Assembly: GCA_030765525.1 (NCBI GenBank)
Contig: JAVCCK010000034.1
Location: 86,126 to 150,125, forward strand
Length of the DNA stretch: 64,000 nucleotides
Origin: Candidatus Lernaella stagnicola
GTDB lineage: Bacteria > Lernaellota > Lernaellaia > Lernaellales > Lernaellaceae
Reading direction: 5' to 3'
A model generated the notes under the pieces. It did no database searches. It saw nothing but the letters and a program-made list of their open reading frames with translations, and had not been told where the DNA came from. A program made the position numbers and the translations under genes. Within the stretch, counting starts at the first letter, position 1. Each line of letters starts with the position of its first letter. Shown in pieces: positions 18,357-42,091 of the stretch.

Positions 18357-18409
18357 GATTATCATCAACGCAACCGATTACCATTTTAGCTTGTGACGGG
18401 AGAAAGCCG

Positions 18410-18982
18410 ATGCGCGTCAAATCTATGTTTTTATTCGTGATTGTTATGGTATTCAGTCTTGCCCTGATGGCGAATTCATGCGATGTGGACACCAAGACGG
18501 TCAAATTGGGACACGTCGATAAAAGTCTGAAGAAATACAAGGATACGAAGTGGGACGGGCTCCAAGAGCAAAAAATCGAGTTCGCCGTCGGCACCGGTAA
18601 CAAGCAAGTGGATGATTGGTCCAAACAGGCTGCCGTATTTTACGCGTCGCTCGTGCAAGCCGAGCATGTAGTGGATGTGGCCGGCAAAAAGGCCGAAAAA
18701 CTCAAGAAGAAGAAAAACAGCAAAGCCAAGAAAGAAGCACAGAGAGCGGTCAACGAAGCCGAAAAGATTCTGAAAAAAGCGGCCGACAACGCTCCAAAGC
18801 TGATCAAGAACGGTGAAAAACTGGTTGCCGATTACAAGACGCTCATCAACAATCCGACTAAGTTGCCGGCGATCGGTAAAGCATTGATGGGCTCGCTCGA
18901 AAACCTGAAACAGGTGATTGACCGGGCGCCGAAGACCTTGAAGAAACTCGGGAAACTATCAAAGAAACTCGCTAAAATCTAA
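18410..18982 (+). CDS. lysine-rich secreted/lipoprotein, hypothetical (low-GC gene)
   Basis: Signal peptide MRVKSMFLFVIVMVFSLALMANSC. The mature part is strongly K-rich and predicted amphipathic helical (KKAEKLKKKKNSKAKKEAQRAVNEAEKILKKAADNAPKLIKNGEKL...). Local GC is ~48-50% versus ~63% in flanking DNA. Confidence 0.6.
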   Translation: MRVKSMFLFVIVMVFSLALMANSCDVDTKTVKLGHVDKSLKKYKDTKWDGLQEQKIEFAVGTGNKQVDDWSKQAAVFYASLVQAEHVVDVAGKKAEKLKKKKNSKAKKEAQRAVNEAEKILKKAADNAPKLIKNGEKLVADYKTLINNPTKLPAIGKALMGSLENLKQVIDRAPKTLKKLGKLSKKLAKI

Positions 18983-19013
18983 GTGGAAACAAGACCGCCG
19001 CTCGTCAAAGAGC

Positions 19014-19367
19014 GTGCCGGGTAGCGTATGGTGGGTGGAGGACGCGATGCAGTGGTTATTGGATAACTGGCAATTGTGCGTTTTCTATTGTCAGGAAGGG
19101 GCGTATTTCAGCGCCCTGCTGTCTCCCATTGGTATTGCCTTGTCGCTCCTGGTCGTGGTCCTGGGAGCCGTTCTCGGGAATATGCGAAAAACCCTGTGGA
19201 TGACCGTGTTCGCCGTGTGGTTTCTCGTGCCGCTTCACCATTTCACCGTCGAGGGCCAGACGCCCGGCGTCGGCAACGTGGGCGGCTACGGCGCGATGGG
19301 CGGGTTTGGTCTCGGCGTGCTGGTTGTTATCGCCGTTGGTTTCTACGTGTACCTCGTACGCGATTGA
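19014..19367 (+). CDS. small integral membrane protein, hypothetical
   Basis: 117 aa with 3 hydrophobic helices and a Gly-rich C-terminus (GVGNVGGYGAMGGFGLGVLVVIAVGFYVYL). Confidence 0.45.
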   Translation: MPGSVWWVEDAMQWLLDNWQLCVFYCQEGAYFSALLSPIGIALSLLVVVLGAVLGNMRKTLWMTVFAVWFLVPLHHFTVEGQTPGVGNVGGYGAMGGFGLGVLVVIAVGFYVYLVRD

Positions 19368-19383
19368 GGCGGCCGACAGGCTT

Positions 19384-20361
19384 ATGACCAAACGAATCGG
19401 CATCACTACCACTGTTCCTCACGAAATCATCGTTGCCGCCGGATACGTTCCGGTCGACCTGAACAACGTGTTCGCCGATGACGCCGACTCGGAGGCGATG
19501 GTGGCAAGCGCCGAAGACGAGGGCTTTCCGGCCGGCGTCTGCGCGTGGATCAAAGGCTTGTACGCCGCGATGCGGGCCGGGCGGGCCGATGCCGTGGTCA
19601 CCGTCGTCAACGGCGATTGTTCCAATACCCAATCCTTGGCCGAAGTATTACGGCACCGCGGCATCGAGACGATCCCTTTTTCCTTCCCCGCCAAACCGCA
19701 ACCGGATCTGGTCGAGCGGGCTCTACAGGATTTCGCTGCCGAACTCGGTACCGAACTGGCGGCGGCCGAGCGCGTTCGCCGGGACTGGCAAGACATTCGC
19801 CGAAACCTAGCCGAGTTGGACCGCCTCGCGTGGCGCGAAAACAAGATTACCTCCGCCGAATTGCACCACTGGTTGCTTTCCTCCAGCGACTTCGGCGGTG
19901 ACGCGAATGCGTTTGGCCGCGAACTTGACGCCTTTCTCGACGACGCCCGCCGTCGGCCGGCGCAACCTGTCGCGCTTCCCCTTGCGCTGCTGGGGGTACC
20001 GCCGATTTTCACCGACCTGTTTGCGCGCCTCGAGGAGCGCGGCGCCCGCTTCGTTTTTTGTGAGGTGCCGCGGCAGTTCTCCATGCCGTATGAATGCCGG
20101 GACCTGGTCGAGCAGTTCTGCCGGTACACTTATCCCTACGATCTCAACCACCGGCTTGATGACTTGTTACCGCAACTGGCCGAGCGGCGCGTCGCCGGCG
20201 CGGTGCATTACGTGCAAGCCTTCTGCCACCGGCAGATCGATCACATTGTCATCAAGGACAAATCGCCGATTCCCGTCTTGGCGCTGGAGGGCGACCGCCC
20301 GGGCACCCTATCTGGGCAGGCGGTCACGCGCCTCGACGCCTTTCTGGAGATGCTCGCGTGA
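19384..20361 (+). CDS. 2-hydroxyacyl-CoA dehydratase (HGD-D/BcrB-BadE-like) family protein
   Basis: MTKRIGITTTVPHEIIVAAGYVPVDLNNVF matches the conserved N-terminal T-T-x-P-x-E-ϕ-ϕ-x-A-x-G of the HGD-D family. Conserved Cys residues occur at VCAW, NGDCSNT, FCEVP and AFCHRQ. The stop overlaps the GTG start of rimO. Confidence 0.5.
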   Translation: MTKRIGITTTVPHEIIVAAGYVPVDLNNVFADDADSEAMVASAEDEGFPAGVCAWIKGLYAAMRAGRADAVVTVVNGDCSNTQSLAEVLRHRGIETIPFSFPAKPQPDLVERALQDFAAELGTELAAAERVRRDWQDIRRNLAELDRLAWRENKITSAELHHWLLSSSDFGGDANAFGRELDAFLDDARRRPAQPVALPLALLGVPPIFTDLFARLEERGARFVFCEVPRQFSMPYECRDLVEQFCRYTYPYDLNHRLDDLLPQLAERRVAGAVHYVQAFCHRQIDHIVIKDKSPIPVLALEGDRPGTLSGQAVTRLDAFLEMLA

Positions 20362-21719
20362 GTGGCAAAACGTTTCGCCTCACCAGCCTGGGCTGCGCGA
20401 AAAACCTCGTCGATAGCGAGGGGCTCGCGGCCTTGTTGGTACGGGCCGGTTGGCGTCTGGTAGACGACGGCCCGGTCGATTTGGTCGTGGTCAACACGTG
20501 CAGTTTCGTCGAGGATGCCGCGCAAGAATCGGTCGATACGCTGCTGGCCGAGGTGGAGCAGAAGCGGGCCGGGCAGACGAGTCGGCTCGCGGCGGTGGGG
20601 TGCCTGCCGCAGAAATACGGTGACGAACTCGCCGACGCCATGCCCGAGCTCGATCTCGTGCTCGGCACCGGGGACCTAGGTTCGATCGTTCGCCGCCTCG
20701 AGCATTTGATCGACACCAACGAGCGGGAAATCGCCGTCGGCCCGCCGTCCGCGGTGTACGAGGAATGGCCCGCCCGTCTGCGGTCGCAGCCCGCGCACCG
20801 CGCCTATCTGAAAATCGCCGAAGGATGCGACAACGCCTGCGCCTTCTGCATCATCGGGCGCTTGCGCGGCCCCTTCCGCAGTCGCGCGCCTGAAGCGATT
20901 TTGGCCGAGGCGGCCGACCTGGGCGCAGCCGGCGTCGTCGAACTCAATTTGGTTGCGCAGGATTTGACGCTTTATGGGCGCGACCTCGCCTCCGCGACAA
21001 CGTTGGCCGAACTACTGCCGCGCCTATCCACCGCCGTGGACGACACCGCTTGCCGCCGCTTGCGATTGCTCTATTTGCACCCGGCGCGGGTCGAGGAAAA
21101 CCTGCTGCGAGTGATCGCCGAGACACCGCGGGTTGTCCCGTACCTCGACATGCCGCTCCAGCATGTCAGCGACCGCGTTTTGCAGCGGATGGGTCGGCCG
21201 CAGAACGCCGCCGATTCGCGCCGTGTTGTGGAACTGGCCCGCCGCCTGGTGCCCGACGTGGCGATCCGCACGACCTTCCTGCTCGGTCATCCCGGAGAGA
21301 GTGAGGACGACTTTGCGGCCTTGCTCGATTTCGTGGCGGAGTATCGTTTCGAACACCTCGGCGCGTTCGCGTGGTCGCCGGAAAAAGGCACCGTGTCATA
21401 TGAACAGGACGATTGGGTCGAAGCCGAATTGCGGGCCGAAAGGGTGGAGCGATTGATGGAATTGCAGCAGGGCGTCAGTCACGAACGGTTGCGCGAGCGG
21501 ATCGGTGGCGTAGTGGAATTGTTGGTCGAGGAGGTGCTCCATAAGCACGATGACGAGGCCTATTCGCACATCGGCCGTCTACCGCAACAAGCGCCCGAAA
21601 TCGACGGCGTCGTGTACCTTCGCGCGCCCCGCGAAGAGGCGTGCCGACCCGGGGACATCGTTCGCGCCGTTGTGACCGATGCCCACGACTACGATCTGTT
21701 CGCCGATCTACTCGCCTGA
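20358..21719 (+). CDS. rimO: ribosomal protein S12 methylthiotransferase RimO (MiaB-family radical SAM)
   Basis: The MTTase N-domain reads FRLTSLGCAKNLVDSE...VVNTCSFVEDA. The radical SAM motif is AEGCDNACAFCII. The TRAM C-terminus is PEIDGVVYLRAP...PGDIVRAVVTDAHDYDLFADL. The sequence is collinear with E. coli RimO. Confidence 0.8.
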   Translation: MSGKTFRLTSLGCAKNLVDSEGLAALLVRAGWRLVDDGPVDLVVVNTCSFVEDAAQESVDTLLAEVEQKRAGQTSRLAAVGCLPQKYGDELADAMPELDLVLGTGDLGSIVRRLEHLIDTNEREIAVGPPSAVYEEWPARLRSQPAHRAYLKIAEGCDNACAFCIIGRLRGPFRSRAPEAILAEAADLGAAGVVELNLVAQDLTLYGRDLASATTLAELLPRLSTAVDDTACRRLRLLYLHPARVEENLLRVIAETPRVVPYLDMPLQHVSDRVLQRMGRPQNAADSRRVVELARRLVPDVAIRTTFLLGHPGESEDDFAALLDFVAEYRFEHLGAFAWSPEKGTVSYEQDDWVEAELRAERVERLMELQQGVSHERLRERIGGVVELLVEEVLHKHDDEAYSHIGRLPQQAPEIDGVVYLRAPREEACRPGDIVRAVVTDAHDYDLFADLLA

Positions 21720-22040
21720 TCCGCAGTCCTCGAGACACAACGCCAACGAAGTGCAGAGCCCCTTGTTTTCGAACACGCAGTCATCGATGCAGGCCCAGTC
21801 GTAGAATTGGTCATCGCGGCAGTAGGTGCGCGCGTCGCCGCGGTCCGGGTGCGCGCCGTCGTGGAGCGGCAAGTTCGTGTCGCAGTCGTCGTAGATGATT
21901 TCGACCAGTTCGTCGCATTCGAGGTCAGCCACCGCGTCGGGGTCATCCTCGTCGTTGCACGCGACGGCAAACACGGCGATCAGCAGGCAGCCGATGCAGA
22001 CCAGCACTCGCCGGGAAGAAGAGCCCGTCAACAGCCGCAA
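21708..22040 (-). CDS. small acidic Cys-rich lipoprotein (paralog of 35487..35912)
   Basis: Signal and lipobox LIAVFAVAC, then the D/E-rich CNDEDDPDAVADLECDELVEIIYDDCDT... and a C-terminal ...WACIDDCVFENKGLCTSLALCLEDC motif. Overlaps the S8 protease gene by 13 nt. Its 3' end overlaps the rimO 3' end by 12 nt (convergent). Confidence 0.55.
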   Translation of the reverse strand: MRLLTGSSSRRVLVCIGCLLIAVFAVACNDEDDPDAVADLECDELVEIIYDDCDTNLPLHDGAHPDRGDARTYCRDDQFYDWACIDDCVFENKGLCTSLALCLEDCGSGE

Positions 22041-24106
22041 CCTCCGTCCTCATCATCATTGTCATCGTCGTCATCATCGTCGTCGGCAGCCGGTTCGGCG
22101 GGAACAGAGTCGTCGTCGGTCGAATCATCCGGCAAACCTTCGGGCGAGACGCCCGGGAAATCTTCATCGATAAAACCGTCACAGTCCTCGTCGACGCCGT
22201 TGCCTTCTATCTCGGCCGCGCCGGGCCGGATCGACGGATTGCCGTCGGCGCAGTCGTTGCCGCCGCAGTTCGCGCCAGGGGACCCGTCGCCGTCGGCGTC
22301 ACAATTTTCACTTGCCAGCGCCCATCCGGCGAGCGCGAAGGTTTGCGTGGTCGTCAGGTCGGCGGCCGAGACCCGCACCGTCCACGTGCCTGCCGCGGGC
22401 TCGACGACTGTTACGCGTTCGACGTTGTTCCGGTCATCCACGCCCGTGACGGCGAGCTGGGCAGGATCGTCGGGGTTTAGCAGCCACGGCAAATACTCCG
22501 CCTTGTCTGGGCCGATCAAGCGCAATTCCAAATCGTTGACCAAGACGCGCACCGCACTCGCGGCGGCGGCGGGATCGTTCCACACAATCGTGATTTCCAG
22601 GACCGGCGAACCCGCCTCGATCTCCACGTCAAACTCGACGAAGTCTTCTTCCGAGGTTATCTCGCCGGCGGCGAACCCGTCGAAATACAGCATCGACAGG
22701 GCCGCTGCGACGTCGATGTGTCCCCAGCCGGTTTGGAAATCCGGCCCCGCGGCTTCCACGTCACGAGCCGTGGCGATCAACAGTGTTTTGGCCAACGCCG
22801 GTGTCCACTCGACGCCCAGATCGTCGGCCGCCTGGCGCAACAATCCCACTGCGCCGGTCACTTGCGGCGCGGCCATGCTCGTGCCGCACCACATGGATCC
22901 GGCGTAACCGCCGCCCGCTATCGTGGAAACGATGTAACCCGGCTTCGGAGGCATGCAGCCGGCCGCGACGACATCCGGCTTCAAGCGACCGTCGTCCGTC
23001 GGCCCGCGGCTTGAATAATCGCTGGTGGTCAGGCCGCCGTCCGCGCTGCCCACGGTGATCACGTTTTTCGCCGTGCCCGGCGGCGGCAAGCTGTGGTAAC
23101 CCTGTCGCGCCGCGATCTCGCAGTCGGACATCGAACCCATGTTCCCGGCCGCGAAGGTGACACCGAGCACCCCGCCGTGTTCGCCCATGACGGCGCGGTC
23201 GTATTCGGCCGTGAAGTCGTCGTAGCTGCCAAGGTAGGCGCAGTTGTCTTCTTCGTCGGACAGCGCGTAGACCCAGCTATTGTTGATCCAAATCGCGCCG
23301 TGGGCCGCGATATCGGCGATTTTTTCGGTCGGCCGATCGAAATCCCACGCCAGGATCGTCGCCCCGGGAGCCACGCCGCGATACAATCCGTCGCTTTCCA
23401 CGCCGTCACCAGCCATCGTGCCGCATACGTGGGTGGCGTGATCGCTTGGGCCGCCGGCTGCGAAATTTCCCAGACGCCCCGCGAAATCCGCGTGCAAGAC
23501 GCGCGCTTCATCGACAATCGCCAAGGTGACGTCGCGACCGGTTAGCGCCCAAGCGTCGGCGGCCTGTGCGAATTCGGCGCCGGTGATGTGGCGGATGTTG
23601 GCGTTGGCCGGTACCAAGCGCGGCGGCTGGGCCTCGATGAGCCACACGGTCGGTTCGGCGGCCAAGTCATCGCGCTTCGATCCGGTTGCGGTCACGACGG
23701 TCGATCGCCCGCGGTCGAAACGCCGCGTCCGCCATGTCGCCGGGGCGTCGTTGACTGCGCGCCGGGACATTTTCGCCGCCGGCGGCATCGGGCCGCACCA
23801 CACGACTTCCGGAGGCGGCGGCGTGCTGGGCGAGGCAGCGGCGACGACGTATCCATGGGGCGGCACCGGCGCAAGCCAGATGATTCCGTCCGGCGTCTCG
23901 CCATTGCGCGGTATGTTCACCGCCCGGTTCAAACGCACGAGGAAGGGGTGACCGGTGCGGGCGAGGGCGGCCCAGCGCACTTGTCGAATTTGGGTGGATA
24001 ACGCGGGAGCGTCCACGCGCGTGGCGACGAATTCAACCGCGGGCGCGGCCATCGCGGGGCAGGCCGAAAAAAGCAACAGTGCAATAATCCATTTGATCCG
24101 ATTCAT
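22028..24106 (-). CDS. secreted subtilisin-like serine protease (S8) with C-terminal MopE-like Cys-rich putative metal-binding domain and poly-Asp tail
   Basis: Signal peptide MNRIKWIIALLLFSACPAMA. S8 catalytic blocks are AIVDEA (Asp), HGTH-like HATHVCGT and GTSMAAPQVTGAV (Ser). The C-terminal part reads CDADGDGSPGANCGGNDCADGNPSIRPGAAEIEGNGVDEDCDGFIDED, then DDDDDDDDNDDEDGGCGC. Confidence 0.85.
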   Translation of the reverse strand: MNRIKWIIALLLFSACPAMAAPAVEFVATRVDAPALSTQIRQVRWAALARTGHPFLVRLNRAVNIPRNGETPDGIIWLAPVPPHGYVVAAASPSTPPPPEVVWCGPMPPAAKMSRRAVNDAPATWRTRRFDRGRSTVVTATGSKRDDLAAEPTVWLIEAQPPRLVPANANIRHITGAEFAQAADAWALTGRDVTLAIVDEARVLHADFAGRLGNFAAGGPSDHATHVCGTMAGDGVESDGLYRGVAPGATILAWDFDRPTEKIADIAAHGAIWINNSWVYALSDEEDNCAYLGSYDDFTAEYDRAVMGEHGGVLGVTFAAGNMGSMSDCEIAARQGYHSLPPPGTAKNVITVGSADGGLTTSDYSSRGPTDDGRLKPDVVAAGCMPPKPGYIVSTIAGGGYAGSMWCGTSMAAPQVTGAVGLLRQAADDLGVEWTPALAKTLLIATARDVEAAGPDFQTGWGHIDVAAALSMLYFDGFAAGEITSEEDFVEFDVEIEAGSPVLEITIVWNDPAAAASAVRVLVNDLELRLIGPDKAEYLPWLLNPDDPAQLAVTGVDDRNNVERVTVVEPAAGTWTVRVSAADLTTTQTFALAGWALASENCDADGDGSPGANCGGNDCADGNPSIRPGAAEIEGNGVDEDCDGFIDEDFPGVSPEGLPDDSTDDDSVPAEPAADDDDDDDDNDDEDGGCGC

Positions 24107-24172: not shown

Positions 24173-24685
24173 TCACGTCGCGGGGCGGCCTTGATTGACG
24201 TCGAACTCGTACACCAGGCTGGCCTCGAAGCGATCGAGATTTCCCTGCAGGTCTTCTTCTTCGTAGTACAAGGTTAGCTGGAAGTTCAGAAAAATCGGCA
24301 CGGAATTGATTTGCGGAATGTAGAACTCAAAGTCCGTCTCTTTTTCGTCGGCGTCAAACTCGACGAGATACGAATCGTCCTTGATGGCGTCCGGGTTGAT
24401 CAGCTCGAAAGTGCCGAAAAGATCTTTATCCTGGAATCGGTCGTAGTCATTCAAACTCACGCGGCATTGCACACGCGAGCCGACGATGCCATTGGTATTG
24501 CTGAAGCGCGCGCGACCGATCACCGCGCTCTGCACGAAGCCGAACACGTGGTCTTGATCCACGCGCAAATTGATCTTCACCGAGTTGTCGCCTTTTTCTT
24601 CTTCGTCCTCACCATCGTCTGTGCATGCCGCCGCGAGCAGGCAACAGGGGAGAAGCAGCAAAAGTAGTATTCGGTACCAGCGCAT
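24173..24685 (-). CDS. lipoprotein, hypothetical
   Basis: MRWYRILLLLLLPCCLLAAAC (lipobox) followed by an acidic linker DDGEDEEEKGD. The start is the internal Met of ORF 24173..24940, 66 nt upstream of the protease gene. Confidence 0.55.
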   Translation of the reverse strand: MRWYRILLLLLLPCCLLAAACTDDGEDEEEKGDNSVKINLRVDQDHVFGFVQSAVIGRARFSNTNGIVGSRVQCRVSLNDYDRFQDKDLFGTFELINPDAIKDDSYLVEFDADEKETDFEFYIPQINSVPIFLNFQLTLYYEEEDLQGNLDRFEASLVYEFDVNQGRPAT

Positions 24686-31745: not shown

Positions 31746-32966
31746 GTGAAGTTCCTGATCGTTATTCCGGCCCTCAACGAAGAGCAGGCCGTTCGCGCCA
31801 TCATCGAACGCTGCCTCGCCGCGCGCCCGGCCATCATCGCGCAAACCCCCGTCGACGAAGTAGACATCACCGTCGTCTCTGACGGCTCCAGTGACCGCAC
31901 GCCCGAAATCGCCGCCGAATACACGGACCGAATCACCCTCGTGAGCTATCGCGTCAATCGCGGCTACGGCGCGGCGATCAAGCTCGGCTGGTCTAATTCG
32001 GATGCCGAACTCGTGGGGTTCCTCGACGCCGACGGCACGTGCGATCCGCTCTTTTTCGTCGACTTGATCAACAAACTCGTCGGCGACGAACTGAATGTCG
32101 TGCTCGGTTCACGGATGGGCGAGGACAGTGAAATGCCCAAAGTGCGCCGGTTCGGCAACCGGGTGTTCGCCGCGATCATCAACCTGATCGCCCGCGCGAA
32201 AATTTCCGACTCGGCCTCCGGGATGCGCGTGGTGCGCCGCGAAAGCCTCCCGCGTCTATATCCGTTGCCCGACGGCCTGCACTTCACGCCCGCGATGAGT
32301 TGCAAGGCAGTGCTCGATCCGCAATTGAAGATCGGCGAAGTGCCGATGACCTACGCCGAACGCCTGGGCGAATCCAAACTTTCGGCCCTCAAAGACGGCG
32401 TGCGTTTTCTACGGATCATCCTCGACATCGCCATGACGTACCGGCCCTTCCGCGTGTTCGGCGTGATCGGGATAGTTTTTTTGCTCCCGGCGCTCTTTTT
32501 CGGCGCAGACCTGGTGGCCAATTACTTCGCTTCGGGCCACGTCCCCGACGGCATGATCTACCGCGTGCTTGCCGTCGTCGTGCTCGGCTTTGCCGGTTTG
32601 CTGATCATGGGCGCCGGGATGATCGCCGAGGGCGTGGTCGAATTGCGCAATCCGTGGATTCGCCCGCACGGCGCGTTCTATCGCTTAGTGCGTCGCGTGA
32701 CGCAGTCCGACGCCATGCTGACGTTGGCCGGGATCGTCCTGCTGGCGGCGCTCGTATTCGTGGCGCGACCGGCCGTTCAATACGTGCTGACCGGTCACAT
32801 TGCGGCGCACTGGTCGCAAGTGGCGCTGGCCGGCGCGATGTTTTTGCTGGCCGTGCAGTTGACCGTGCTGGCGGGGCTGCAACGCATGCTCGCCACCATG
32901 CTCGCTACCGAGACCGATGACGTCGACCCTCGCTTCGACAAGGAGCAAGTGCTTGGCAAGGACTGA
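31746..32966 (+). CDS. family 2 glycosyltransferase with C-terminal multi-TM domain (polyprenyl-phosphate sugar transferase-like)
   Basis: GTG start. The GT2 motifs are MKFLIVIPALNEE, VVSDGSSDRT and FLDADGTCDP. Four hydrophobic helices follow (FGVIGIVFLLPALFF...). Confidence 0.75.
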   Translation: MKFLIVIPALNEEQAVRAIIERCLAARPAIIAQTPVDEVDITVVSDGSSDRTPEIAAEYTDRITLVSYRVNRGYGAAIKLGWSNSDAELVGFLDADGTCDPLFFVDLINKLVGDELNVVLGSRMGEDSEMPKVRRFGNRVFAAIINLIARAKISDSASGMRVVRRESLPRLYPLPDGLHFTPAMSCKAVLDPQLKIGEVPMTYAERLGESKLSALKDGVRFLRIILDIAMTYRPFRVFGVIGIVFLLPALFFGADLVANYFASGHVPDGMIYRVLAVVVLGFAGLLIMGAGMIAEGVVELRNPWIRPHGAFYRLVRRVTQSDAMLTLAGIVLLAALVFVARPAVQYVLTGHIAAHWSQVALAGAMFLLAVQLTVLAGLQRMLATMLATETDDVDPRFDKEQVLGKD

Positions 32967-34419
32967 CCGCGGGCGCGTCGCCCTTGTCAATGCGCCGTTT
33001 CTGCCGCGCTTTTCCCGCTCCCAACGAAGCCCGGGCGTCATCAAAAGCAACGTGCTCTACTACCCCTATTGGCTGGCCCACGCCGCCGCCTTGCTGCAGC
33101 GCGAAGGCTTCGTCGTCGATCTGCTTGACGCCCCCGCGCTAGGCCTCGATTCGACGCCCGCCGTCGATCACGTCGTGAGCTTTCAACCCGACCTCGTATT
33201 GGTCGAAACCAGCACGCCGTCCATCGCCGCCGATCGCGCCTACGCCGTCGAAGTCAAAAACAAGATGCCGGAAGCCGCCGTGTTCCTGGTCGGTACGCAC
33301 GTCACCGCGCAGCCCATACAAACCCTGGGCGACTCGCCGCTCGACGGCGCCCTGCTCGGCGAGTACGACTTCACAGCCCTCGAACTTGCGCGCGTCGTCG
33401 TCGCCGGCGGCAACCGCGCCGACGTGCCGGGTGTGGCGGTTTGCGGCGCGAGCGGCGGCGAAATTGGCGCAACACGCGCTCTGATCGAAAACCTGGACGA
33501 ACTGCCGTGGATCGCCCCGATCTACAAGCAGTTTCTGCCGATCGAGGCATACAACTTCAGTCTCGCCCATCACCCGATGGTGATGCTGATCAGCGGCCGC
33601 GGCTGCCCCAACAATTGCTTCTTCTGCCTGTATCCACAGGTGATGCACGGCCGGCGCTTTCGTGCCCGCAGCCCTGAGCACGTCGTCGGCGAACTGGAGT
33701 ATGTCGCCACGCAGATGCCCGGCGTGCGGGAAATCGTATTCGAAGACGACACCTTCACCGCCGACGAAACCCGCGCCATACAAATCGCCGAACTGAAAAT
33801 GCAGCGCGGCGTCAAGCTGCCGTTTTTCGCCAACCTGCGCGTCAATACCGAACCGGAGACCGTGCGCGCCCTGGTGCGGGCCGGGCTGCGCAGTTGCGCC
33901 GTGGGCTTTGAATCCGCCGGCGAAAAGGCGCTGGAGCGCATGAAAAAAGGCATATCGCTCGAGCGCGCCAAACGCTTCATGCAGATCGCCCGCGCCGAGG
34001 GGTTACTGGTACACGGCTGCTTCATGGTGGGGTTTCCGGGAGAGACGCGCGAGACCATGGCGCACACGCTACGTTACGCCATCGAACTCGAGCCTGATTC
34101 CGCGCAGTTTTATCCGGTGTTTCCGTACCCGGGAACCGAGGCGTACGAGTGGGCCGAACGAAACGGGTATCTCAGTACGCACGACTTTCGCAAATGGCTG
34201 ACGCCCGCCGGCCATCACGCGGCGGTGATTGATCTGCCCGGCCTGTCGCATCAGGAGCAATGGGCGTTTTGTGAAAAGGCGTACCGGCGATTCCATTTTC
34301 GCCCGCGCTACCTGGTACGCAAACTCGTCCAGGCGATTCGGCGGCCCGCGGAAGGATGGCGAAGTCTGCGCGGATTGTTCGCGTACCTGCGTTATCTCGT
34401 TGGGCGGAGAGCGTCATGA
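32917..34419 (+). CDS. B12-binding domain radical SAM protein (class B rSAM)
   Basis: The B12-binding fold is RVALVNAPFLPRF...VVDLLDAP...PDLVLVETST...VFLVGTHVTAQP. The rSAM core is MLISGRGCPNNCFFCLYPQV. The most probable start is TTG ~32953 (AAGGAG 7 nt upstream) rather than the ORF-track ATG 32917. Embedded between two GT2 genes. Confidence 0.8.
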   Translation: MTSTLASTRSKCLARTDRGRVALVNAPFLPRFSRSQRSPGVIKSNVLYYPYWLAHAAALLQREGFVVDLLDAPALGLDSTPAVDHVVSFQPDLVLVETSTPSIAADRAYAVEVKNKMPEAAVFLVGTHVTAQPIQTLGDSPLDGALLGEYDFTALELARVVVAGGNRADVPGVAVCGASGGEIGATRALIENLDELPWIAPIYKQFLPIEAYNFSLAHHPMVMLISGRGCPNNCFFCLYPQVMHGRRFRARSPEHVVGELEYVATQMPGVREIVFEDDTFTADETRAIQIAELKMQRGVKLPFFANLRVNTEPETVRALVRAGLRSCAVGFESAGEKALERMKKGISLERAKRFMQIARAEGLLVHGCFMVGFPGETRETMAHTLRYAIELEPDSAQFYPVFPYPGTEAYEWAERNGYLSTHDFRKWLTPAGHHAAVIDLPGLSHQEQWAFCEKAYRRFHFRPRYLVRKLVQAIRRPAEGWRSLRGLFAYLRYLVGRRAS

Positions 34420-35435
34420 AACGGGTGACGGTTGCCGTACTCGCTTACAACGAAGAGGCCAATTTGCCGGACCTGCTCGGCAGCTTGGCGGCGCAAACCT
34501 TACCGCAAGACCAATTCGATATTCTTATCGTCGATAACGGCAGTTCCGACCGCACGCGCGAGATCGCCGAACAGTGGCAAAGCCCCTTGAACAACCTGCG
34601 CGTGGTCGTTCAACCCGTACCGGGCATCGCCGTTTCCCGCAATTGCGCGCTGGCGGAAGCGACCACGGCGTTGATTGCGTTCACCGACGCCGATGTCATT
34701 TGTCCGCCCGGTTGGCTGCAAACGCTGGTCGAGGGTTTCGATCGGCACCACGCACGCGACGAGCATGTTGTGGCCGTGGGTGGCGGCAACACGCCCGTGT
34801 CGGGGCAGGGCGCTTTTCTCACGGCGATCGGCATCACGCTAAATAGTTTCTGGGGCAGTCACGGCAGCGTGCAGGGCATGATCTACACCGACGATCGGGA
34901 CGTGGAGCACATTCCGACGCTCAATATTTGCTACGACCGGGAGCGGGTGCGCGCCGCGGGCGGGTTTGACGAAGATTTCCGCATGGTCAGCGAAGATCCG
35001 GAACTCAATCACCGGCTGACGCGCCGCCACGGGTACAAAATCGTTTTTCTCGCCGGGGCCGAGGTGGAGCACAAAATGCGGCCGGACCTGAAAAGTTGGT
35101 GGCGCAACGTGTACATGTACGGTCGCGGGCGCACGCAGATCATCAAGAAGCACCCCGATCATCTCCAGTGGAAGTACATGGTGCCGCCGGTATTGCTGGC
35201 GGTCTTGGCGTTGATCCCACTGGGATTGGTGCATCCGCTATTTTGGCTGCCGGCCGTGTATTGGATTGCGCCGCTGCCCATCGCCGCGTACTTGTGCCTG
35301 CGCGCCGGGAAACCCACGTTGACGCCGCTGGCCTACCTCATTTTGGTCGGCAATCCCGTTTTCTACGGATTGGGCATGATCCACGGCCTGTGGTTTCGCT
35401 ACGAACCCGTTAGCCCGCGCTGCGTTGACCCATAA
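34416..35435 (+). CDS. family 2 glycosyltransferase
   Basis: MKRVTVAVLAYNEEANLPDLL...ILIVDNGSSDRT...AFTDADVICPPGWL (DxD-like), with two C-terminal TM helices. The ATG overlaps the TGA of the upstream rSAM gene (ATGA). Confidence 0.8.
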   Translation: MKRVTVAVLAYNEEANLPDLLGSLAAQTLPQDQFDILIVDNGSSDRTREIAEQWQSPLNNLRVVVQPVPGIAVSRNCALAEATTALIAFTDADVICPPGWLQTLVEGFDRHHARDEHVVAVGGGNTPVSGQGAFLTAIGITLNSFWGSHGSVQGMIYTDDRDVEHIPTLNICYDRERVRAAGGFDEDFRMVSEDPELNHRLTRRHGYKIVFLAGAEVEHKMRPDLKSWWRNVYMYGRGRTQIIKKHPDHLQWKYMVPPVLLAVLALIPLGLVHPLFWLPAVYWIAPLPIAAYLCLRAGKPTLTPLAYLILVGNPVFYGLGMIHGLWFRYEPVSPRCVDP

Positions 35436-35468
35436 AAAAACCCCGGAGCCGCAGCCCCGGGGTCTTCG
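35434..35468 (-). terminator. rho-independent terminator (minus strand; possibly bidirectional)
   Basis: The stem is ccccgg with loop agccgcagcc and ccgggg. On the minus strand the hairpin is followed by TTTTTTT, just downstream of the lipoprotein gene 35487..35912 and 1 nt after the GT2 stop. Confidence 0.5.
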
Positions 35469-35486
35469 ACACTTATTGTCTTAGGC

Positions 35487-35912
35487 TTAGCTGAACAGGT
35501 CGGTCAGGCACGCTTCGATGTCGACACAGTCGTCGTTTTCATCGATGCAGGCGTAGATATCACTGTCCTTGCCGTAATTCTCATCGCCGGCGGAGCAAGC
35601 GTCGATGACGGCGCCCAAGGCGATTTCGATTTCATCGGCATCGTAGAACGCCAGTCCGCATACATCGTACAGGTACGTGTAATTGGTGGCGCACTCGTCG
35701 TCGGTCGTGTCGTCGTCACCCGCCGTGTCGTTATCGTCGTTATCGTCGTTGTCATCGTCGTCGTCGCCGGCCGTGTCGTCATCGGCCGTGTCGTCGTCGG
35801 CCACGGTATCGTCGTCGTCGTCGTCATCGCCACAGGCAGCCATCGCGCCGAACGCCAGCGCCAACACCGTAATCAGCGCGAGCAGCAGGAACTTGTTATT
35901 AACCACACTCAT
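35487..35912 (-). CDS. small poly-Asp Cys-rich lipoprotein (paralog of 21708..22040)
   Basis: Signal and lipobox LALAFGAMAAC. A ~60-aa tract follows that is almost exclusively D with T/A/N (GDDDDDDDTVADDDTADDDTAGDDDDDNDDNDDND...). The C-terminal Cys-containing domain is ...ECATNYTYLYDVCGLAFYDADE...IDACSAGDENYGKDSDIYACIDENDDCVDIEACLTDLFS. Located 212 nt downstream of the giant rSAM gene on the same strand. Confidence 0.6.
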   Translation of the reverse strand: MSVVNNKFLLLALITVLALAFGAMAACGDDDDDDDTVADDDTADDDTAGDDDDDNDDNDDNDTAGDDDTTDDECATNYTYLYDVCGLAFYDADEIEIALGAVIDACSAGDENYGKDSDIYACIDENDDCVDIEACLTDLFS

Positions 35913-36124
35913 TTTCGTCTCCTTCGACTAGTTTTGGAATTATCAAGTTTTTAAGCGCACCGAAGAACCCGCGTAACACGGGCATCGGCATCTTCCTCCC
36001 ATTTCCTGCGGGGAGCAGCCATTGTAACCCCTTCAGACCCACTGTAAACAGCGAAGGTTCCCAATGAGATCATATTTCATGTACTTGATGAAAAACGGAG
36101 TTATCGGCAGGGGTGGGAAGGCTT

Positions 36125-39100
36125 CTAAACCTTTGATAATTCGCGGGATTCCTGTGATTGAAGGCGTTTACGCAATTCTTCGGTCAATCGTCCGATTCGT
36201 TCGTGGGCGCCGCGATTGTGGCCGAGATTGTCGCAGGCTTGGTAGCAGCCGATGACCGAAAAGTACGGATCCGATTTGGGTGTCGTCAGGGCTTTTCGGC
36301 GAAATTCCCGATAGGTCTCGCCGGTCCAAATCGTGCGGAAGTCGGCCTCGTGCAGGTTGCCCATGGGCAGGTCGTCGGCTTTGCAGCACGGAATGACCGA
36401 GCCGTCGGTTTTCACGCGGGCGTAGGTCCAGCCGATGGAGCAGGGGATTTTGTCCACCATTTCCGCGTCGTACCCCGAGCCTTCACCGGCCTGGATGCGT
36501 CGCAGGAACACGCCGTAACCGAGGAAGCTCAGGAATTCCACTTTGATCGCATAGCGCTCTTTGTCGATGGCGCACTGCGGATTATCGGGGCAGCGTTCGC
36601 ACTCGTGACGCGGATAGTAAAAAATGAGCGCGTTTTCCACGACGTTGTCTTCTTCGATTTCCAGCCGCCATTCCTTGCGGTGACACAAGACGTCGAATCG
36701 CGTGATGTCGTCGAGTTCGTAGCGGAAGCCGCCGGGCAGCAGGCTGCGCTTGACGAAGCGCGCGAATTCCAGCCCCTCGCCGTCGGCGTCCTGTCGCTTA
36801 GCACCGCGCGTGGGGTCGAGTTCGAGGTAGTCTTCGCGCTTGGGCAGATCGTTGAGCTGCCGCACGATTTCGGCGCGATCGGCCTCGGTCAGCGCCAGCG
36901 AATCGGTGTAGCCGGGCACGATGTCGATGGGCGTGAACTCGACGTACTCGGCCAGCGATTCAACGGCGAAGGAGACCATGTTCGCCACGTCATGGGCGTT
37001 CGTGTGACAGACGACGTGGTAGACCTTCACTTGCGGTTGGAAGCTATTGCGCTCGGCTTTGAGCCGGTGCAAGAGCTGGAGAGACTCCATGATTCGGCGC
37101 AGCGTCTTCGGCTGCTGATTCGGATGCACGGCGGCGTACACTTCGGGCGATCCCGCCCACACGCTCACCGTCAGGTGGTCGACGCCCGCCTCGACCAGGC
37201 CTTCGCAAACTTTTTCCGTCAGCAACGTGCCGTTGGTGATGACGGTGCATTCCAGGCCGCGCGCTTTGACTCGGCGGATGATCTCCATGGCATCGGTGTG
37301 GCAAAGCGGGTCGCCCGCGCCGGAAAGTTGCACGTGTTTGGCGCCCAATTCGGCCGCGTCGTCGATCAATCGCAGCACCAATTCGGTGGGTAGGTGTTGC
37401 TGTTTTTCCTCGCCGGTCATTCGCCGTTCGGCGAGCAGTGGCGAGTGGTTCCAGCAGCCGATGCAATCCAGGTTGCAGAAGTTGGTCAGGTCGATCTCGA
37501 AAATTTCGGGCCCGGCCAAGACTTCCTCGCCGTCCAGAATGCCTGCCAGGGCGAGGTTGTCTTCCACAAACGCCTGCGCCTCTTGGGCGGTAAGCGCGGC
37601 TTCCTCGACGGGCGCTTCAATTTCCGGCGCCGCCTCATCTTTAACCGGTTCCGGCATGATATAGCTGCAGCCCAGGGGGCCGGCGCGGTCACCCGCCTCG
37701 GGAATGTCGGTCTTGAACGAACGCAGGTCGTTGATCTCGTCGATCAGGATTTTCATGCGCTCTTCCATCGACAGTTCGGGGCGAAACTTCTCGACGACAC
37801 TCGCTTGCTTGCCTTCGGTGAGATTGGTCTCCCGCACTTCGACGTCCAACTCTTCGCAAAGCCGCAGCAGGGCGCGGATGCGGGCGTTGCGCACCGCCGG
37901 CGTGTTGGCACCGTCCAGGGACTCCCACAAGTAGTGATAATCCGTCTCCGGCAGGTGGATGCCGAACCGTTCCGGGTACACGTGCAAAGCCGTGCCGGTG
38001 ATCACGTGCATCGAGTTGATGCTCTTGATCTGGCCGATCCACGCCGCATTCTCGCGGATGAAATCGAGCGTCATCTGGAAATCATCGGCGGTCTCGCCCG
38101 GGAAACCCACGATGATGAACAAGCAGGTTTTGATGCCCGCCTCATGGCAGTCGCGGATGACGCGGCGGGCTTGCTCGACTTCGAAAAAGCGCAGTTTTCC
38201 CATGCGCTTGAGCACCGTGGGCGAGCCCGATTCGACGCCCCACTGCATTTCGTAGCAGCCCGCGGCCGCCATTTTATCCAGCAACTGCCTAGTCATGCCG
38301 GGCAGGGGGATGGCTTCGCCGTTCCAGCGGAATTCCAGCCCGGCGTCGATGATCCGGTCACAGAGTTCTTCGAGAATCACCACGTCACCGTTGAGCAGGT
38401 TGTCGGCGATCGTGAAATTGCGAAAGCCGTGCGTCTCCACATGACGGCGCAGTTCGCCGAATATGTGCTTGGCGCTGCGCATGCGAAAATCGCCGCTGAT
38501 CTGTTTGCCTTTGCAGTAGGTGCAGTTGGCGATGCAGCCGCGGCTCCATTCAAGGATCAGCGAATCGCCGGGGTACTGCTCGATGTCGAACTCGTCGTAA
38601 GTGGGCGGCGCGAGCGTGTCCAGGTCCATGATGGGGGCGCGCGGTGTGAAGCGGCATTCGCCTTGTTCGTCGAGAATCATCAGGCCGGGGATGTTCCGCA
38701 AATCCTCCCCGGCGCGCGTGCGTTCGACGATCTCCAGCAGCGTATTTTCACCTTCGCCGACCACGTAGCCGTCGATCAGGTCTCCGGCGCGGTCGATGAA
38801 AATTTGCCGGTATTCGGGCGTGAAGCACGCGGGACCGCCCAGGATGATGCGCGTGTCGCGATTGTGCTCGCGGAAACGCCGAATCACTTCCAGCGTGATG
38901 CGCTCTTTCGGGTCGACGACGCTGAAGCCGAGGATCGGCGGCGACAGGTCGACTAACTCCTCCACCGCTTGGTCAATTTGTCCCCGCAGACTGTGTTTGA
39001 CAACTTCGAAGGTCGTGTCGTTCGACCAGAAGTTCTTGTTCTCCACGTGCCACAGCATGCGGTATATCTCGTGGACGCCGTTGTAGAACTCGATGTTGAA

Positions 39101-42091
39101 ATCGCGCATCGCAGTGTGATAACCGCGCGCCCGCAGGAAGCTCGACAAATACGCCAGCCCCACCGGTGGGTTTTCGTAGCCCCAGGGGGGCAAGGTCACA
39201 AGCACGACATCCGGCGCCGGAGTGATTTTGCGCAGCAGGCGGTCGCGAATCTGTGTCTCGATTTTTCGAAACTCATGCCCCGGAGGCACGAAGAAATCGT
39301 AGTTGAATTTGACGTCCAGGCCCGCGACCCAAATCGCCATTTCCATCATGCGTTTTCGCCGCCAAGACGGATTGTTGTACGCCTTGTACGACCACGACTG
39401 GAAGTGCTTGCCCGGCGGCAGCAGAACGCCGTACGTGACGCAATCGCGCTCGAGCGCGCTGCCGGGCAGGATGTAGCAGGGCGTGACCTCGTCCACGTAG
39501 TCAATCGTGTCTTGAGCGTCATGCACCGCTTTGACCGTGGCGAGAAAATCCCGTTCGGTTTCGCCCGGGAAACCAACGAGCAGATTGACGTGCGTTTCGA
39601 TGCCCGCCGCGTGTGCCTGCCGCAGGTTATCTAGCGCGACTTGCCCGGTGTAACCCTTGTTCATGTGCGCCAAGAGTTCGTCGGAGAAACTTTCGACGCC
39701 GAAGCGTATCTTTGCGCAGCCGCCACGGGCCAACGTTTCGAAGAACGCCGCGTCCATCTCGACTCGCGGCGCCATGCGGCAGGTCCACCGGAAGGGCCGC
39801 CCGCTGTGGGCGATGCGTTCGGCCAGTTCGCGCAAAGCGTCGAGGTCGCCGTTGGCGATCAGGTCGGTGAAGTGAAACGTGAATACTTCCCACGTGTCGT
39901 GGTGGTCGCACATTTCCGCGAATACCGACGCCGCGCTGCGTGTGCGAAAACTTCCCTCCGCCGGTTGCTCGGCGCAAAACGCGCACCGGAAGCGGCAGCC
40001 GCGGCTCATGCGGATGGGCAACACCGGGCTTTCATAACGGTCCGGGCGAAATTCGCGGAAAGTCGGGTAGCCGATCACGTCCAGGTTGCGCAGTGGTTCG
40101 CGGGGCAAGAACTCGGGTTCGCCGTCCGGCCCCACCCAGCGTGCTCCGCGCAGAAACGCATTGCCGTCGCCGCGCCGATGCCGGCGAATGATTTCCACCA
40201 GCGTTCCTTCCGGCTGACCGATCAGCGCCAAGTCGCAAATGGCTTCGGGGAACAAGTCGCGCTCGGCGTCGATGCGTGTGGGGTCACCGCCGATGATCAG
40301 TTTGCGCGCCGGGTCGCGTTCGCGGATGGCCGTCATCACATCGCGAGTGACCAGCAAGTTGCCGCGCACGAGGTGGAAGTAAACGAGGTCCCCGGACGCC
40401 GCCAGGATTTGTTCGGCGAGCTTGGCGGGCGACAGGTCCAGTTTTTTGCGGAACGCCTCGTACGCGATGGGGTTCGCCCATTGATCGTGGCGCGGTAACT
40501 CCCACAGCTTTCGATCTTCCTCCGTGGCCCGCAGGTATTCCTGAATCGACAAATCCAGAGCGAAGGCTTTGAGACTGCGCCCGGCGAGGTAGGACGCAAT
40601 GGCCGCCAGTTCCAGCGGCGGGTGCGAGACGTCGAAGGGTGGGCACAGCACGAGCAGTAAGTCGTGGTCTTCGCCCGCCAGATGACTTGCCTCGTCGACA
40701 AAGCCGAGGTTGGTTTGCCGCACCGGTAAGCCGAGTCGATCCAACGCCGCTTTGACCCGCGTGAGGCGCTCGTGCCGCACTTGCGGCGTGTTGCCGTCCT
40801 GACCGATCCACGCAACTTCAAACCAGTCTGGGTCCACCGGCGGCAGAATGCCGTACTTCTCCGGCTTCTCCGCCAACACCGAATACTCGAGGATGTTGCA
40901 GGAATTGAGCACGGCGACTTCGTCGATCCACTCCGTGTTTGCTTCGACCCAAGCGATTGTTGCGTCCAAATGCGCTTCGGTCTCGCCCGGAAAACCGACG
41001 ACGAAATTGACCCAGGTCGTGATGCCCGCATCCTTGACCGCGCGCAACGTGTTCGTCGCGGCCTGGGCGGTCGTGCCTTTGTTCATCCATCGCAGCACAT
41101 CATTGCTGCCCGACTCGACACCCAGCGCCAACGTGTGACAGCCCGCGCGGCGCATCGCCCGGAGCGCTTCGGGTGTGAGTTTGTCGCTGATCGCCGCGTT
41201 AGCGTTCCAGCGAATGTCCAGACCGGCGTCTTCGAGCATCCCGCACAGGCTCACCACGTCGTCCACGATTTGCGTGATCTGCAGGTCGACGACCATGAAG
41301 TCGCGTTTGTCGAGTGTTTCGACGTGGTGCTGAATCTCGGCAAAAACATTTTCGGCCGACCGGCGGCGGAAACGCCCCATCAACACGCGGTCGTTGCACA
41401 GCGTGCAGCCCTTGGTGCAACCGCGGCTCATGGCCAGCGGCAGGTTGGGCGTCGCGTAGAGGGACAGGTCAAAATCGCTGAAATCGGGGAAGGGAAAATC
41501 GTCCAAGGTTTTGGCGACCGGCCGGTCGACACAAGGGCCGCCGGGCAACGCCACGCCCGCGATGTCTTCCGGCACCTCGCCGGCCACCAAGGCGCGGGCC
41601 GCTTCCACGACCGCCACTTCGCCTTCGCCGACGACAAAGGCGTCGACCAAGGCTTTCGGGAACGCGTTGCGGCTCGCTTCGCTGAACGCGCCGAGACCGC
41701 CGACGAGAATCTTGATGCCCGGCCGCCGCGCCCGCAAGCGCCGCATCAACTCGATGGTCACCGCGCGGTTGTCGCTGTGCACCGAGAAACCGGCCACCGC
41801 CGCGCCGCTTTCATCGATCTCGCGAGCCATGCGGTCAAAGGCGTCGCCGAATGCGGCGATCGTGCTGGGCACCCGGCTCTCCCAAACCCACGCGGCCTTG
41901 TGGGCCGGATCCCAAAGATGCCCCTGGCTCGCCTCAAACTCGCGATATAGCTCGATATTGAAATCACGCGCGCATACCGAAAAATCAGCGCGGCGCAATG
42001 CGGCGGTCACGCAGGCCAAACCCAGCGGCGGGCCCTCGGGCCCGAAGGGAGGCAAGATCGCTAAAAACATATCCGGTGCAGCTTTTACCAT
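36125..42091 (-). CDS. giant multi-domain radical SAM protein: three tandem B12-binding/radical-SAM modules + C-terminal SPASM/twitch-type radical SAM domain (~1990 aa)
   Basis: Continuous ORF with no stops. Module 1 is ILPPFGPEGPPLGLACV...AMSRGCTKGCTLCNDRVLMGRFRRRSAENVFAEI. Module 2 is LVLCPPFDVSHPPLELAAI...RMSRGCRFRCAFCAEQPAEGSFRTRSAASVFAEM. Module 3 is VLVTLPPWGYENPPVGLAYL...EWSRGCIANCTYCKGKQISGDFRMRSAKHIFGEL. The fourth domain is IDLTNFCNLDCIGCWNH...GAGDPL... plus a C-terminal Cys cluster (CERCPDNPQC, CSIGW, IPCC, GCYQAC). The start is assigned to Met (MVKAAPDMFLAILPP) just before module 1. The upstream in-frame 116 codons of ORF-track ORF 36125..42439 are low-complexity and run into the tRNA. 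Confidence 0.8.
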   Translation of the reverse strand: MVKAAPDMFLAILPPFGPEGPPLGLACVTAALRRADFSVCARDFNIELYREFEASQGHLWDPAHKAAWVWESRVPSTIAAFGDAFDRMAREIDESGAAVAGFSVHSDNRAVTIELMRRLRARRPGIKILVGGLGAFSEASRNAFPKALVDAFVVGEGEVAVVEAARALVAGEVPEDIAGVALPGGPCVDRPVAKTLDDFPFPDFSDFDLSLYATPNLPLAMSRGCTKGCTLCNDRVLMGRFRRRSAENVFAEIQHHVETLDKRDFMVVDLQITQIVDDVVSLCGMLEDAGLDIRWNANAAISDKLTPEALRAMRRAGCHTLALGVESGSNDVLRWMNKGTTAQAATNTLRAVKDAGITTWVNFVVGFPGETEAHLDATIAWVEANTEWIDEVAVLNSCNILEYSVLAEKPEKYGILPPVDPDWFEVAWIGQDGNTPQVRHERLTRVKAALDRLGLPVRQTNLGFVDEASHLAGEDHDLLLVLCPPFDVSHPPLELAAIASYLAGRSLKAFALDLSIQEYLRATEEDRKLWELPRHDQWANPIAYEAFRKKLDLSPAKLAEQILAASGDLVYFHLVRGNLLVTRDVMTAIRERDPARKLIIGGDPTRIDAERDLFPEAICDLALIGQPEGTLVEIIRRHRRGDGNAFLRGARWVGPDGEPEFLPREPLRNLDVIGYPTFREFRPDRYESPVLPIRMSRGCRFRCAFCAEQPAEGSFRTRSAASVFAEMCDHHDTWEVFTFHFTDLIANGDLDALRELAERIAHSGRPFRWTCRMAPRVEMDAAFFETLARGGCAKIRFGVESFSDELLAHMNKGYTGQVALDNLRQAHAAGIETHVNLLVGFPGETERDFLATVKAVHDAQDTIDYVDEVTPCYILPGSALERDCVTYGVLLPPGKHFQSWSYKAYNNPSWRRKRMMEMAIWVAGLDVKFNYDFFVPPGHEFRKIETQIRDRLLRKITPAPDVVLVTLPPWGYENPPVGLAYLSSFLRARGYHTAMRDFNIEFYNGVHEIYRMLWHVENKNFWSNDTTFEVVKHSLRGQIDQAVEELVDLSPPILGFSVVDPKERITLEVIRRFREHNRDTRIILGGPACFTPEYRQIFIDRAGDLIDGYVVGEGENTLLEIVERTRAGEDLRNIPGLMILDEQGECRFTPRAPIMDLDTLAPPTYDEFDIEQYPGDSLILEWSRGCIANCTYCKGKQISGDFRMRSAKHIFGELRRHVETHGFRNFTIADNLLNGDVVILEELCDRIIDAGLEFRWNGEAIPLPGMTRQLLDKMAAAGCYEMQWGVESGSPTVLKRMGKLRFFEVEQARRVIRDCHEAGIKTCLFIIVGFPGETADDFQMTLDFIRENAAWIGQIKSINSMHVITGTALHVYPERFGIHLPETDYHYLWESLDGANTPAVRNARIRALLRLCEELDVEVRETNLTEGKQASVVEKFRPELSMEERMKILIDEINDLRSFKTDIPEAGDRAGPLGCSYIMPEPVKDEAAPEIEAPVEEAALTAQEAQAFVEDNLALAGILDGEEVLAGPEIFEIDLTNFCNLDCIGCWNHSPLLAERRMTGEEKQQHLPTELVLRLIDDAAELGAKHVQLSGAGDPLCHTDAMEIIRRVKARGLECTVITNGTLLTEKVCEGLVEAGVDHLTVSVWAGSPEVYAAVHPNQQPKTLRRIMESLQLLHRLKAERNSFQPQVKVYHVVCHTNAHDVANMVSFAVESLAEYVEFTPIDIVPGYTDSLALTEADRAEIVRQLNDLPKREDYLELDPTRGAKRQDADGEGLEFARFVKRSLLPGGFRYELDDITRFDVLCHRKEWRLEIEEDNVVENALIFYYPRHECERCPDNPQCAIDKERYAIKVEFLSFLGYGVFLRRIQAGEGSGYDAEMVDKIPCSIGWTYARVKTDGSVIPCCKADDLPMGNLHEADFRTIWTGETYREFRRKALTTPKSDPYFSVIGCYQACDNLGHNRGAHERIGRLTEELRKRLQSQESRELSKV

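Follow-up and report, generated by a model that had tools for sequence, protein, structure and literature searches.

We analysed a stretch of 64,000 nucleotides (nt), called the window throughout, from the metagenome-assembled genome of Candidatus Lernaella stagnicola (phylum Lernaellota, = FEN-1099) obtained from Ace Lake, Antarctica, which is saline (PMC9324843). Our subject is a gene on the minus strand at 35487..35912, whose translation is a lipoprotein precursor of 141 amino acids (aa) (MDP8224727.1, P9L99_15310; NCBI label 'hypothetical protein'). An earlier reading of the same DNA (the original prediction) had described it correctly as the next gene, on the same strand and with its own terminator, after that of a giant radical SAM (rSAM) enzyme, from which we found it separated by 212 nt. 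The enzyme (36125..42070, minus strand, 1981 aa, MDP8224728.1, a 100% match to P0001) contains three B12-binding/rSAM units and one rSAM-SPASM unit, as assigned from Pfam, NCBIfam and the accession order. Two more genes, at 21708..22040 and 62311..62979, had been grouped with the lipoprotein gene. All three exist, but they lie on the minus strand, and plus-strand translations of them are meaningless.

The open reading frame (ORF) at 35487..35912 is a real gene, as seen from its ribosome-binding site, its terminator and the conservation of its product. The ribosome-binding site GAAGGAG (35919..35925, minus strand, as are all features of this gene given below) lies 6 nt 5' of the ATG. Downstream, RNA folding identified an intrinsic terminator at 35434..35467, made of a 14-bp G+C-rich stem, a 4-nt loop and U7, with a folding energy of -31.7 kcal/mol (z = -4.9) that none of 200 shuffled sequences equalled. 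A consensus terminator scan of 35300..36300 reported none, missing this textbook hairpin, and the negatives of that scan are therefore unreliable when taken alone. Comparison of the C-terminal module with its ortholog in a related locus, L003, over 68 codons gave a ratio of non-synonymous to synonymous substitution rates (dN/dS) of 0.17, which identifies the frame as a protein-coding gene under purifying selection. The identical protein sequence was also present in two other samples in public data. In the 212 nt that separate the rSAM stop codon from the start of the lipoprotein gene, a consensus scan found a promoter-like element, TTTACA-16-TACAAT, at 36021..36048, which agrees with the consensus at 10 of 12 positions and is a consensus match only; its -10-like element aligned with TACAAC in L003. 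The gene is probably transcribed on its own, at least in part. Neither a terminator nor significant RNA structure (z = -0.38) was seen in these 212 nt, and an Rfam search of the intergenic region together with the gene returned chance-level matches only.

The precursor can be divided into three parts. By inspection, residues 1-26 (35835..35912) form a signal peptide, MSVVNNK / FLLLALITVLALAFGAM / AA, with a positively charged n-region (MSVVNNK) and a hydrophobic h-region (FLLLALITVLALAFGAM), a layout shared by the relatives. We applied the lipobox pattern [LVI][ASTVI][GAS]-C at the end of the h-region, where this protein has the lipobox-like M-A-A-C, the L003 ortholog V-V-A-C and the related protein P0071 V-I-A-C. 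Cys27 (codon 35832..35834) is the predicted lipidated +1 Cys. Residues 28-72 (35697..35831) make up a poly-Asp tether in which 28 of 45 residues are Asp (62%) and none is basic. At the DNA level the tether is a degenerate 15-nt repeat encoding DDDT[AG] (Tandem Repeats Finder: period 15, 6.8 copies; period 3, 45 copies), and the acidic tract of the L003 ortholog is longer by 9 residues. The remainder, residues 73-141 (35490..35696), is a C-terminal domain with six Cys, delimited by family alignments (A1/A4) and an AlphaFold2 model and predicted to consist of four helices. An NCBIfam match to 'EbpS' over the signal peptide and acidic tract was rejected as compositional, since it scored 23 bits against a cut-off of 300.

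The six-Cys domain is a genuine, very small and previously unannotated family, and in this respect the expectation of a real, conserved Cys-rich lipoprotein domain was borne out. A phmmer search over 1.84 billion representative proteins gave seven matches at E <= 1e-3, and a profile search added one further member, P0071. In alignments A1/A4 the six Cys are invariant among the full-length members, which also all share a Gly and an F-x-D motif. The protein from the window follows the pattern C-x10-C-x20-C-x15(-20)-C-x6(-7)-C-x5-C, has the F-x-D motif, the Gly in the third loop and the conserved Tyr in helix 1, and is scored by the hidden Markov model (HMM) of the family at E = 2.6e-29. Most members have both a lipobox-like signal and a linker rich in Asp. 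P0065, P0066 and P0070 are longer proteins, with the module at the C-terminus behind other domains. Of these, P0065 and P0066 are paralogs in the same Lernaella genome, where they are encoded as a tandem pair (MDP8223494.1 and MDP8223495.1, 264 and 247 aa, with an extra N-terminal domain) on a contig of 301,050 bp outside the window (P9L99_09050/09055). Every member that can be placed taxonomically falls in Lernaellota, to which the family so far appears to be limited.

AlphaFold2 modelled the six-Cys module with a pLDDT of 93.6 and a pTM of 0.80 from an input of only eight sequences, and the model showed four helices, the first of which is followed by a hairpin-like loop. The module has no Pfam or NCBIfam domain match; none of the eight members matched a Pfam family at E <= 1, and the EF-hand, dockerin and MopE models were unmatched. 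There was no match to the module among PDB sequences, and its model had no Foldseek match in PDB or BFVD. A word-indexed protein search with the C-terminal domain returned zero homologs, domain-pattern scans of genome and metagenome contigs yielded no further members, and a local jackhmmer search seeded with the domain from the window did not extend the family past the known members.

We then compared the acidic tether across the phylum by scoring lipobox-like ORFs for the number of Asp and Glu residues in the 30 residues after the Cys. Among 39 such ORFs in 431 kb of Lernaellota loci, 9 had at least 10 of these residues, as against 0 of 37 in 914 kb from other phyla. In Lernaellota the tract is seen in front of domains that are unrelated, among them CAP, VWA, DUF218 and a large Cys-rich repeat protein, and it is found in relatives from fens and groundwater as well. 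Wza-type, TPR and DUF1573 lipoproteins of the same loci have no acidic tract. Judged from these sequences, the acidic tether is a phylum-wide lipoprotein style and not a mark of the six-Cys family.

The residues that follow the lipidated Cys resemble a known sorting signal. In Bacteroidota, the lipoprotein export signal (LES), CS(D/E)2 or SDDDD, drives surface exposure (PMC5080379, PMC6222051). LES lipoproteins such as SusG and MucG have a small or polar residue at +2 and acidic residues at +3/+4, as do lipoproteins in the window, which start C-G-D-D-D-D, C-N-D-E-D and C-T-D-D; the protein at 35487..35912 fits this residue pattern. In both groups, lipoproteins that face the periplasm, such as Wza, are without the motif. 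The acidic run of the LES is, however, 2-4 residues long, whereas the tethers here extend over 30-50 near-homopolymeric Asp positions and belong to another phylum. In E. coli, Asp at +2 retains lipoproteins in the inner membrane. Many outer-membrane lipoproteins of E. coli have disordered N-terminal linkers (bioRxiv 10.1101/2021.01.05.425367), and the linker of Pal (PMC12826056) offers the same arrangement of a lipidated Cys, a low-complexity tether and a folded domain held off the membrane. These linkers are not poly-Asp, and the Lernaellota tether is far more charged and is repetitive at the DNA level.

The giant rSAM enzyme is conserved across Lernaellota at 45-74% identity. Its designation as a 'RiPP methyltransferase' by TIGR03975 was rejected as an artefact of summing three domains: the single B12-rSAM domains score 96-142 bits against a cut-off of 281.85, and no domain taken singly passes an NCBIfam cut-off. 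Among its Pfam matches at E <= 0.01 there is no RRE/PqqD family. In the closer loci its recurrent neighbours are PBP1, in divergent orientation, and, in convergent orientation, an exopolysaccharide (EPS) cluster (Wza, Wzz kinase, GT2, B12-rSAM, GT2), and PMT_2 (GT-C) glycosyltransferases are encoded near it in three more distant loci (L079-L081). These conserved envelope-glycan neighbours point to an envelope glycan or lipid, rather than a peptide, as the substrate of the enzyme. Relatives with 2-4 fused rSAM domains were seen in Omnitrophota, Planctomycetota, Woesearchaeota and other groups. The B12-rSAM gene of the EPS cluster encodes a single-domain protein (32917..34419, plus strand) and lies between the two GT2 genes; the order GT2 / B12-rSAM / GT2 is conserved in L003, L005 and L078, and apparently in L015 and L016.

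According to the original prediction, the four-centre rSAM enzyme encoded next to it could modify the acidic, Cys-rich lipoprotein before Sec export, as its substrate, or the lipoprotein could bind the product of the enzyme. We therefore examined the neighbourhoods of full-length orthologs of the enzyme (45-74% identity) in 16 further loci, 17 with the window. Thirteen of these had neither a six-Cys gene nor one for the eight-Cys module described below next to the enzyme. Same-strand adjacency was confined to the window and L003 (74% identity), in which a six-Cys lipoprotein gene lies 3' of the rSAM gene; these are two of the 17 loci and represent one lineage, so that a conserved pairing of poly-Asp lipoprotein and rSAM enzyme was not found. 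At the corresponding place, L005 (74% identity) has a convergent acyl-CoA dehydrogenase gene 49 bp past the rSAM stop. In L014, L015, L016 and L078 a convergent GT2 gene abuts the rSAM gene, in L007 and L017 it is a convergent Wzz kinase gene, and in L004, L020, L021, L022, L079 and L080 other genes lie 3' of it. Convergent relatives of the lipoprotein occurred in the remaining two loci. In L081 (51% identity) a divergent, two-domain family member (HMM E = 7.6e-5 among 15,372 ORFs) lies 1.25 kb downstream of the rSAM gene and upstream of a VWA lipoprotein gene, and in L018 (48% identity) two eight-Cys relatives lie 1-2 kb downstream. In both loci these genes belong to operons other than that of the rSAM gene.

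Family members also occur away from the enzyme. P0071 and P0068 have no rSAM gene within about 6-8 kb and stand in unrelated contexts. Both share metagenomes with rSAM orthologs, on contigs of similar G+C; P0068 and the ortholog P0010 are in different assemblies (GCA_964653995.1 and GCA_964534375.1). At 52 loci of relatives of the giant rSAM from other phyla (among them Omnitrophota, Planctomycetota and archaea), flanks of up to 10 kb contained no family member. The lack of a neighbour in 13 of 17 loci, together with the distance of P0071 and P0068 from any rSAM gene, does not support a pairing of substrate and enzyme. A complete absence of co-occurrence, which the original prediction had named as the outcome that would overturn it, is not what we observed, as L081, L018 and a further pair of paralogs place the family near giant rSAM genes. 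The locus of P0066 and P0065 lies 22 protein genes from a second giant rSAM of the Lernaella genome, P0037 (MDP8223517.1, 2288 aa). Because rSAM genes are unusually frequent in the window, any gene in it is more likely to lie near one.

We also compared the protein with known substrates of rSAM/SPASM maturases, namely ranthipeptides, sactipeptides, proteusins and the sulfatases of anSME. Like them it is Cys-rich and encoded beside a multi-domain rSAM/SPASM gene, and anSME provides a precedent in that it modifies Sec-exported sulfatases. Unlike them, it starts with a Sec/lipoprotein signal and not with a leader peptide, no RRE was found in the enzyme, and no C/S-x-P-x-R motif of the kind found in anSME substrates occurs in the 141-aa sequence. 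The six Cys lie inside a confidently predicted compact fold, as would be the case for structural disulfides, and the promoter-like site 5' of the gene likewise argues against a dedicated substrate. The lipoprotein is thus probably not the substrate of the giant rSAM.

Taken together, these results lead us to favour, with a probability of roughly 60%, the reading that 35487..35912 encodes a tethered envelope lipoprotein, and that its position beside the rSAM gene reflects a lineage-specific insertion and not a substrate pairing. Lipoprotein biogenesis depends on Lgt and LspA. Given the Sec-type signal and the lipobox-like motif, the precursor would be cleaved before Cys27 and anchored to lipid at this residue. 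The mature protein would then consist of a 45-residue polyanionic stalk, of a length that differs between relatives, and a 69-residue six-Cys domain, which is predicted to be a compact four-helix bundle and may be held together by three disulfides. The stalk would act as an extended, charge-repelled spacer that keeps the small domain off the membrane, and it would probably bind divalent cations incidentally. Since its C-G-D-D-D start resembles the LES, the protein may be sorted in an LES-like manner and exposed at the cell surface. As for the domain itself, it most likely works in the envelope as a small module for binding or as an adaptor. The gene appears to have been inserted where the rSAM gene and the convergent exopolysaccharide cluster meet; both are conserved units, but the junction between them is variable.

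Several observations weigh against parts of this reading. The lipobox has Met at -3, which fits relaxed patterns only, although positions -2, -1 and +1 fit. The analogy with the LES is a resemblance at the level of pattern only, and an SLT/LysM lipoprotein in L081, presumably periplasmic, starts C-A-K-D-E. Since no terminator was found between the two genes, read-through from the rSAM gene, and hence co-transcription with it, is possible. Finally, the proximity to rSAM genes in two or three lineages exceeds a simple random model, albeit in differing orientations: in the sequence sampled around rSAM orthologs there were only three family matches, and all lay at most 2 kb downstream of the rSAM gene. 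Some functional tie, in which the lipoprotein is modified before export or is an envelope partner of the product of the enzyme, would explain this proximity and also the presence of both Lernaella six-Cys loci near giant rSAMs. Such a tie would have to be loose and lost from most loci, and we consider it a long shot.

Other acidic lipoproteins in the window bear on a different possibility, in which the Cys domain serves exported proteins encoded together with it, as an accessory module. The protein at 21708..22040 (minus strand, 110 aa, MDP8224715.1) begins, after its lipobox, with acidic residues and has a Cys-rich module of eight Cys, and its translation and hhalign comparison make it a possible distant relative. 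The shared organisation of lipobox, acidic tract and Cys module that had been claimed for three proteins is a style of tether found across the lineage and does not mark a family. The third, a CAP-domain lipoprotein of 222 aa with an acidic tether (62311..62979, minus strand; Pfam CAP, E = 3e-14), shares the signal peptide and acidic tract only. It had no similarity to the 35487..35912 protein beyond these segments, and hhalign against the six-Cys domain gave a probability of 0.4%, which rules it out of a common paralogous family.

The original label of true paralogs for the 21708..22040 and 35487..35912 proteins goes too far. Between their C-terminal modules, BLASTP gave E = 0.21, and the family HMM did not retrieve the 21708..22040 protein at E < 100. 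An hhalign comparison with the six-Cys family gave a weak P = 7e-4 over the full domain, a score reached by 1 of 200 full shuffles and by 0 of 200 shuffles in which the Cys were fixed. A global alignment placed six of its eight Cys on the six columns of invariant Cys in the family. AlphaFold2, when given the six-Cys alignment, produced the same order of helices with a pLDDT of 81.6, in a model biased by that alignment. The Cys pattern of this protein (..C-x9-C-x3-C-x7-C-x5-C-x3-C) was seen again in L018, in two small poly-Asp lipoproteins, and in the two-domain protein of L081, where it belongs to the second domain while the first matches the six-Cys profile. The tandem of a six-Cys-like and an eight-Cys domain in L081 links the two types of Cys module. 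On these comparisons the 21708..22040 protein is possibly a distant eight-Cys relative, and at best that.

The TTG start of the 21708..22040 gene overlaps the stop of a secreted S8 protease gene by 13 nt, which bears out the overlap described originally and suggests translational coupling. The encoded protein and the protease may possibly stand in an inhibitor or partner relationship. Besides this pair, P0068 ends 6 nt before a gene for a Tat-signal amidohydrolase, the L081 member lies 35 nt upstream of the VWA lipoprotein gene, and the module sits behind other domains in P0065, P0066 and P0070; all of this would suit an inhibitor, chaperone or anchoring adaptor, of which the copy at 35487..35912 would be an orphan. 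The partner, however, is different each time, the copies in the window and in L003 stand alone, the protein encoded after P0071 looks cytoplasmic, and searches of PDB sequences and Pfam revealed no similarity to known protease inhibitors. We therefore regard an accessory role as unlikely.

The S8 protease itself (22028..24106, minus strand) has a MopE-type motif and a poly-Asp tail of its own (..AADDDDDDDDNDDEDGGCGC); the MopE motif is absent from the 35487..35912 protein. The operon in L081 (11020..12862, minus strand) encodes the two-domain Cys-module lipoprotein and the VWA lipoprotein, which has an acidic tether and a Cys-rich C-terminal tail. In L018, four Cys-rich acidic lipoprotein genes are clustered just 3' of the rSAM ortholog (16860..20446) and encode proteins of 122, 157, 543 (with Thr-rich and CxxC-rich repeats) and 169 aa, and a small antitoxin-like ORF was seen at 16080..16325.

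A further possibility is that the stalk is the functional part, and that the protein is a surface protein that binds cations (Ca2+, Mg2+ or other metals) or interacts with minerals, for instance by nucleating them, with the Cys domain as a cap. The Asp content of the tether, the strongly acidic domain and the saline source would be in keeping with this. Binding of Ca2+ and mineral by poly-Asp proteins is known from other systems, and the mollusc proteins Asprich and Aspein are secreted acidic matrix proteins of biomineralisation with long near-homopolymeric Asp runs. The tether shares with these, in the absence of homology, the occurrence of Asp runs in a secreted protein. Unlike theirs, the run here is a tether that leads from a lipid anchor to a folded domain and is common to many unrelated Lernaellota lipoproteins. 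A similar tract precedes many unrelated enzymes and domains, also in the relatives from fens and groundwater, which a generic tether fits better. Furthermore, the length and sequence of the tract drift freely among orthologs, while the Cys domain is under purifying selection. Binding of metal by the poly-Asp tract is chemically plausible; a dedicated cation- or mineral-binding function we consider quite unlikely. Modification of the lipoprotein by the neighbouring rSAM enzyme, or binding of the product of that enzyme, is very unlikely in view of the neighbourhoods, enzyme domains and predicted fold described above.

We conclude that the 35487..35912 protein is an ordinary kind of object, a tethered lipoprotein, with an unusual tether and an unannotated domain, from a poorly known phylum. 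If our reading of it as a tethered envelope lipoprotein is right, it adds a small, unannotated family of helical domains of the disulfide type. It would also mean that throughout Lernaellota/FEN-1099, an uncultured phylum, lipoprotein tethers are made of near-homopolymeric Asp repeats. Because the start of the tether would mimic the surface-export signal of Bacteroidota, one can ask whether surface export by acidic signals exists beyond that phylum. The finding provides no current route to the function of the giant rSAM, the conserved neighbours of which are envelope glycan genes.

A fourth lipoprotein of the window with an acidic start (C-T-D-D-G-E-D-E-E-E..VFGFV) is encoded on the minus strand at ~24173..24685, where the start coordinate is approximate; it matches no Pfam family, and an ortholog-like ORF is present in L017 at 13030..13599. 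A gene for a MiaB-like methylthiotransferase (20358..21719, plus strand) is convergent with the 21708..22040 gene, and a 653-aa protein with a B12-binding domain is encoded at 57917..59878 (plus strand). Lastly, an ORF of 2673 aa at 5540..13561 (plus strand) consists almost entirely of TPR repeats and shows weak similarity to the TPR region of Slam, the surface lipoprotein assembly modifier.

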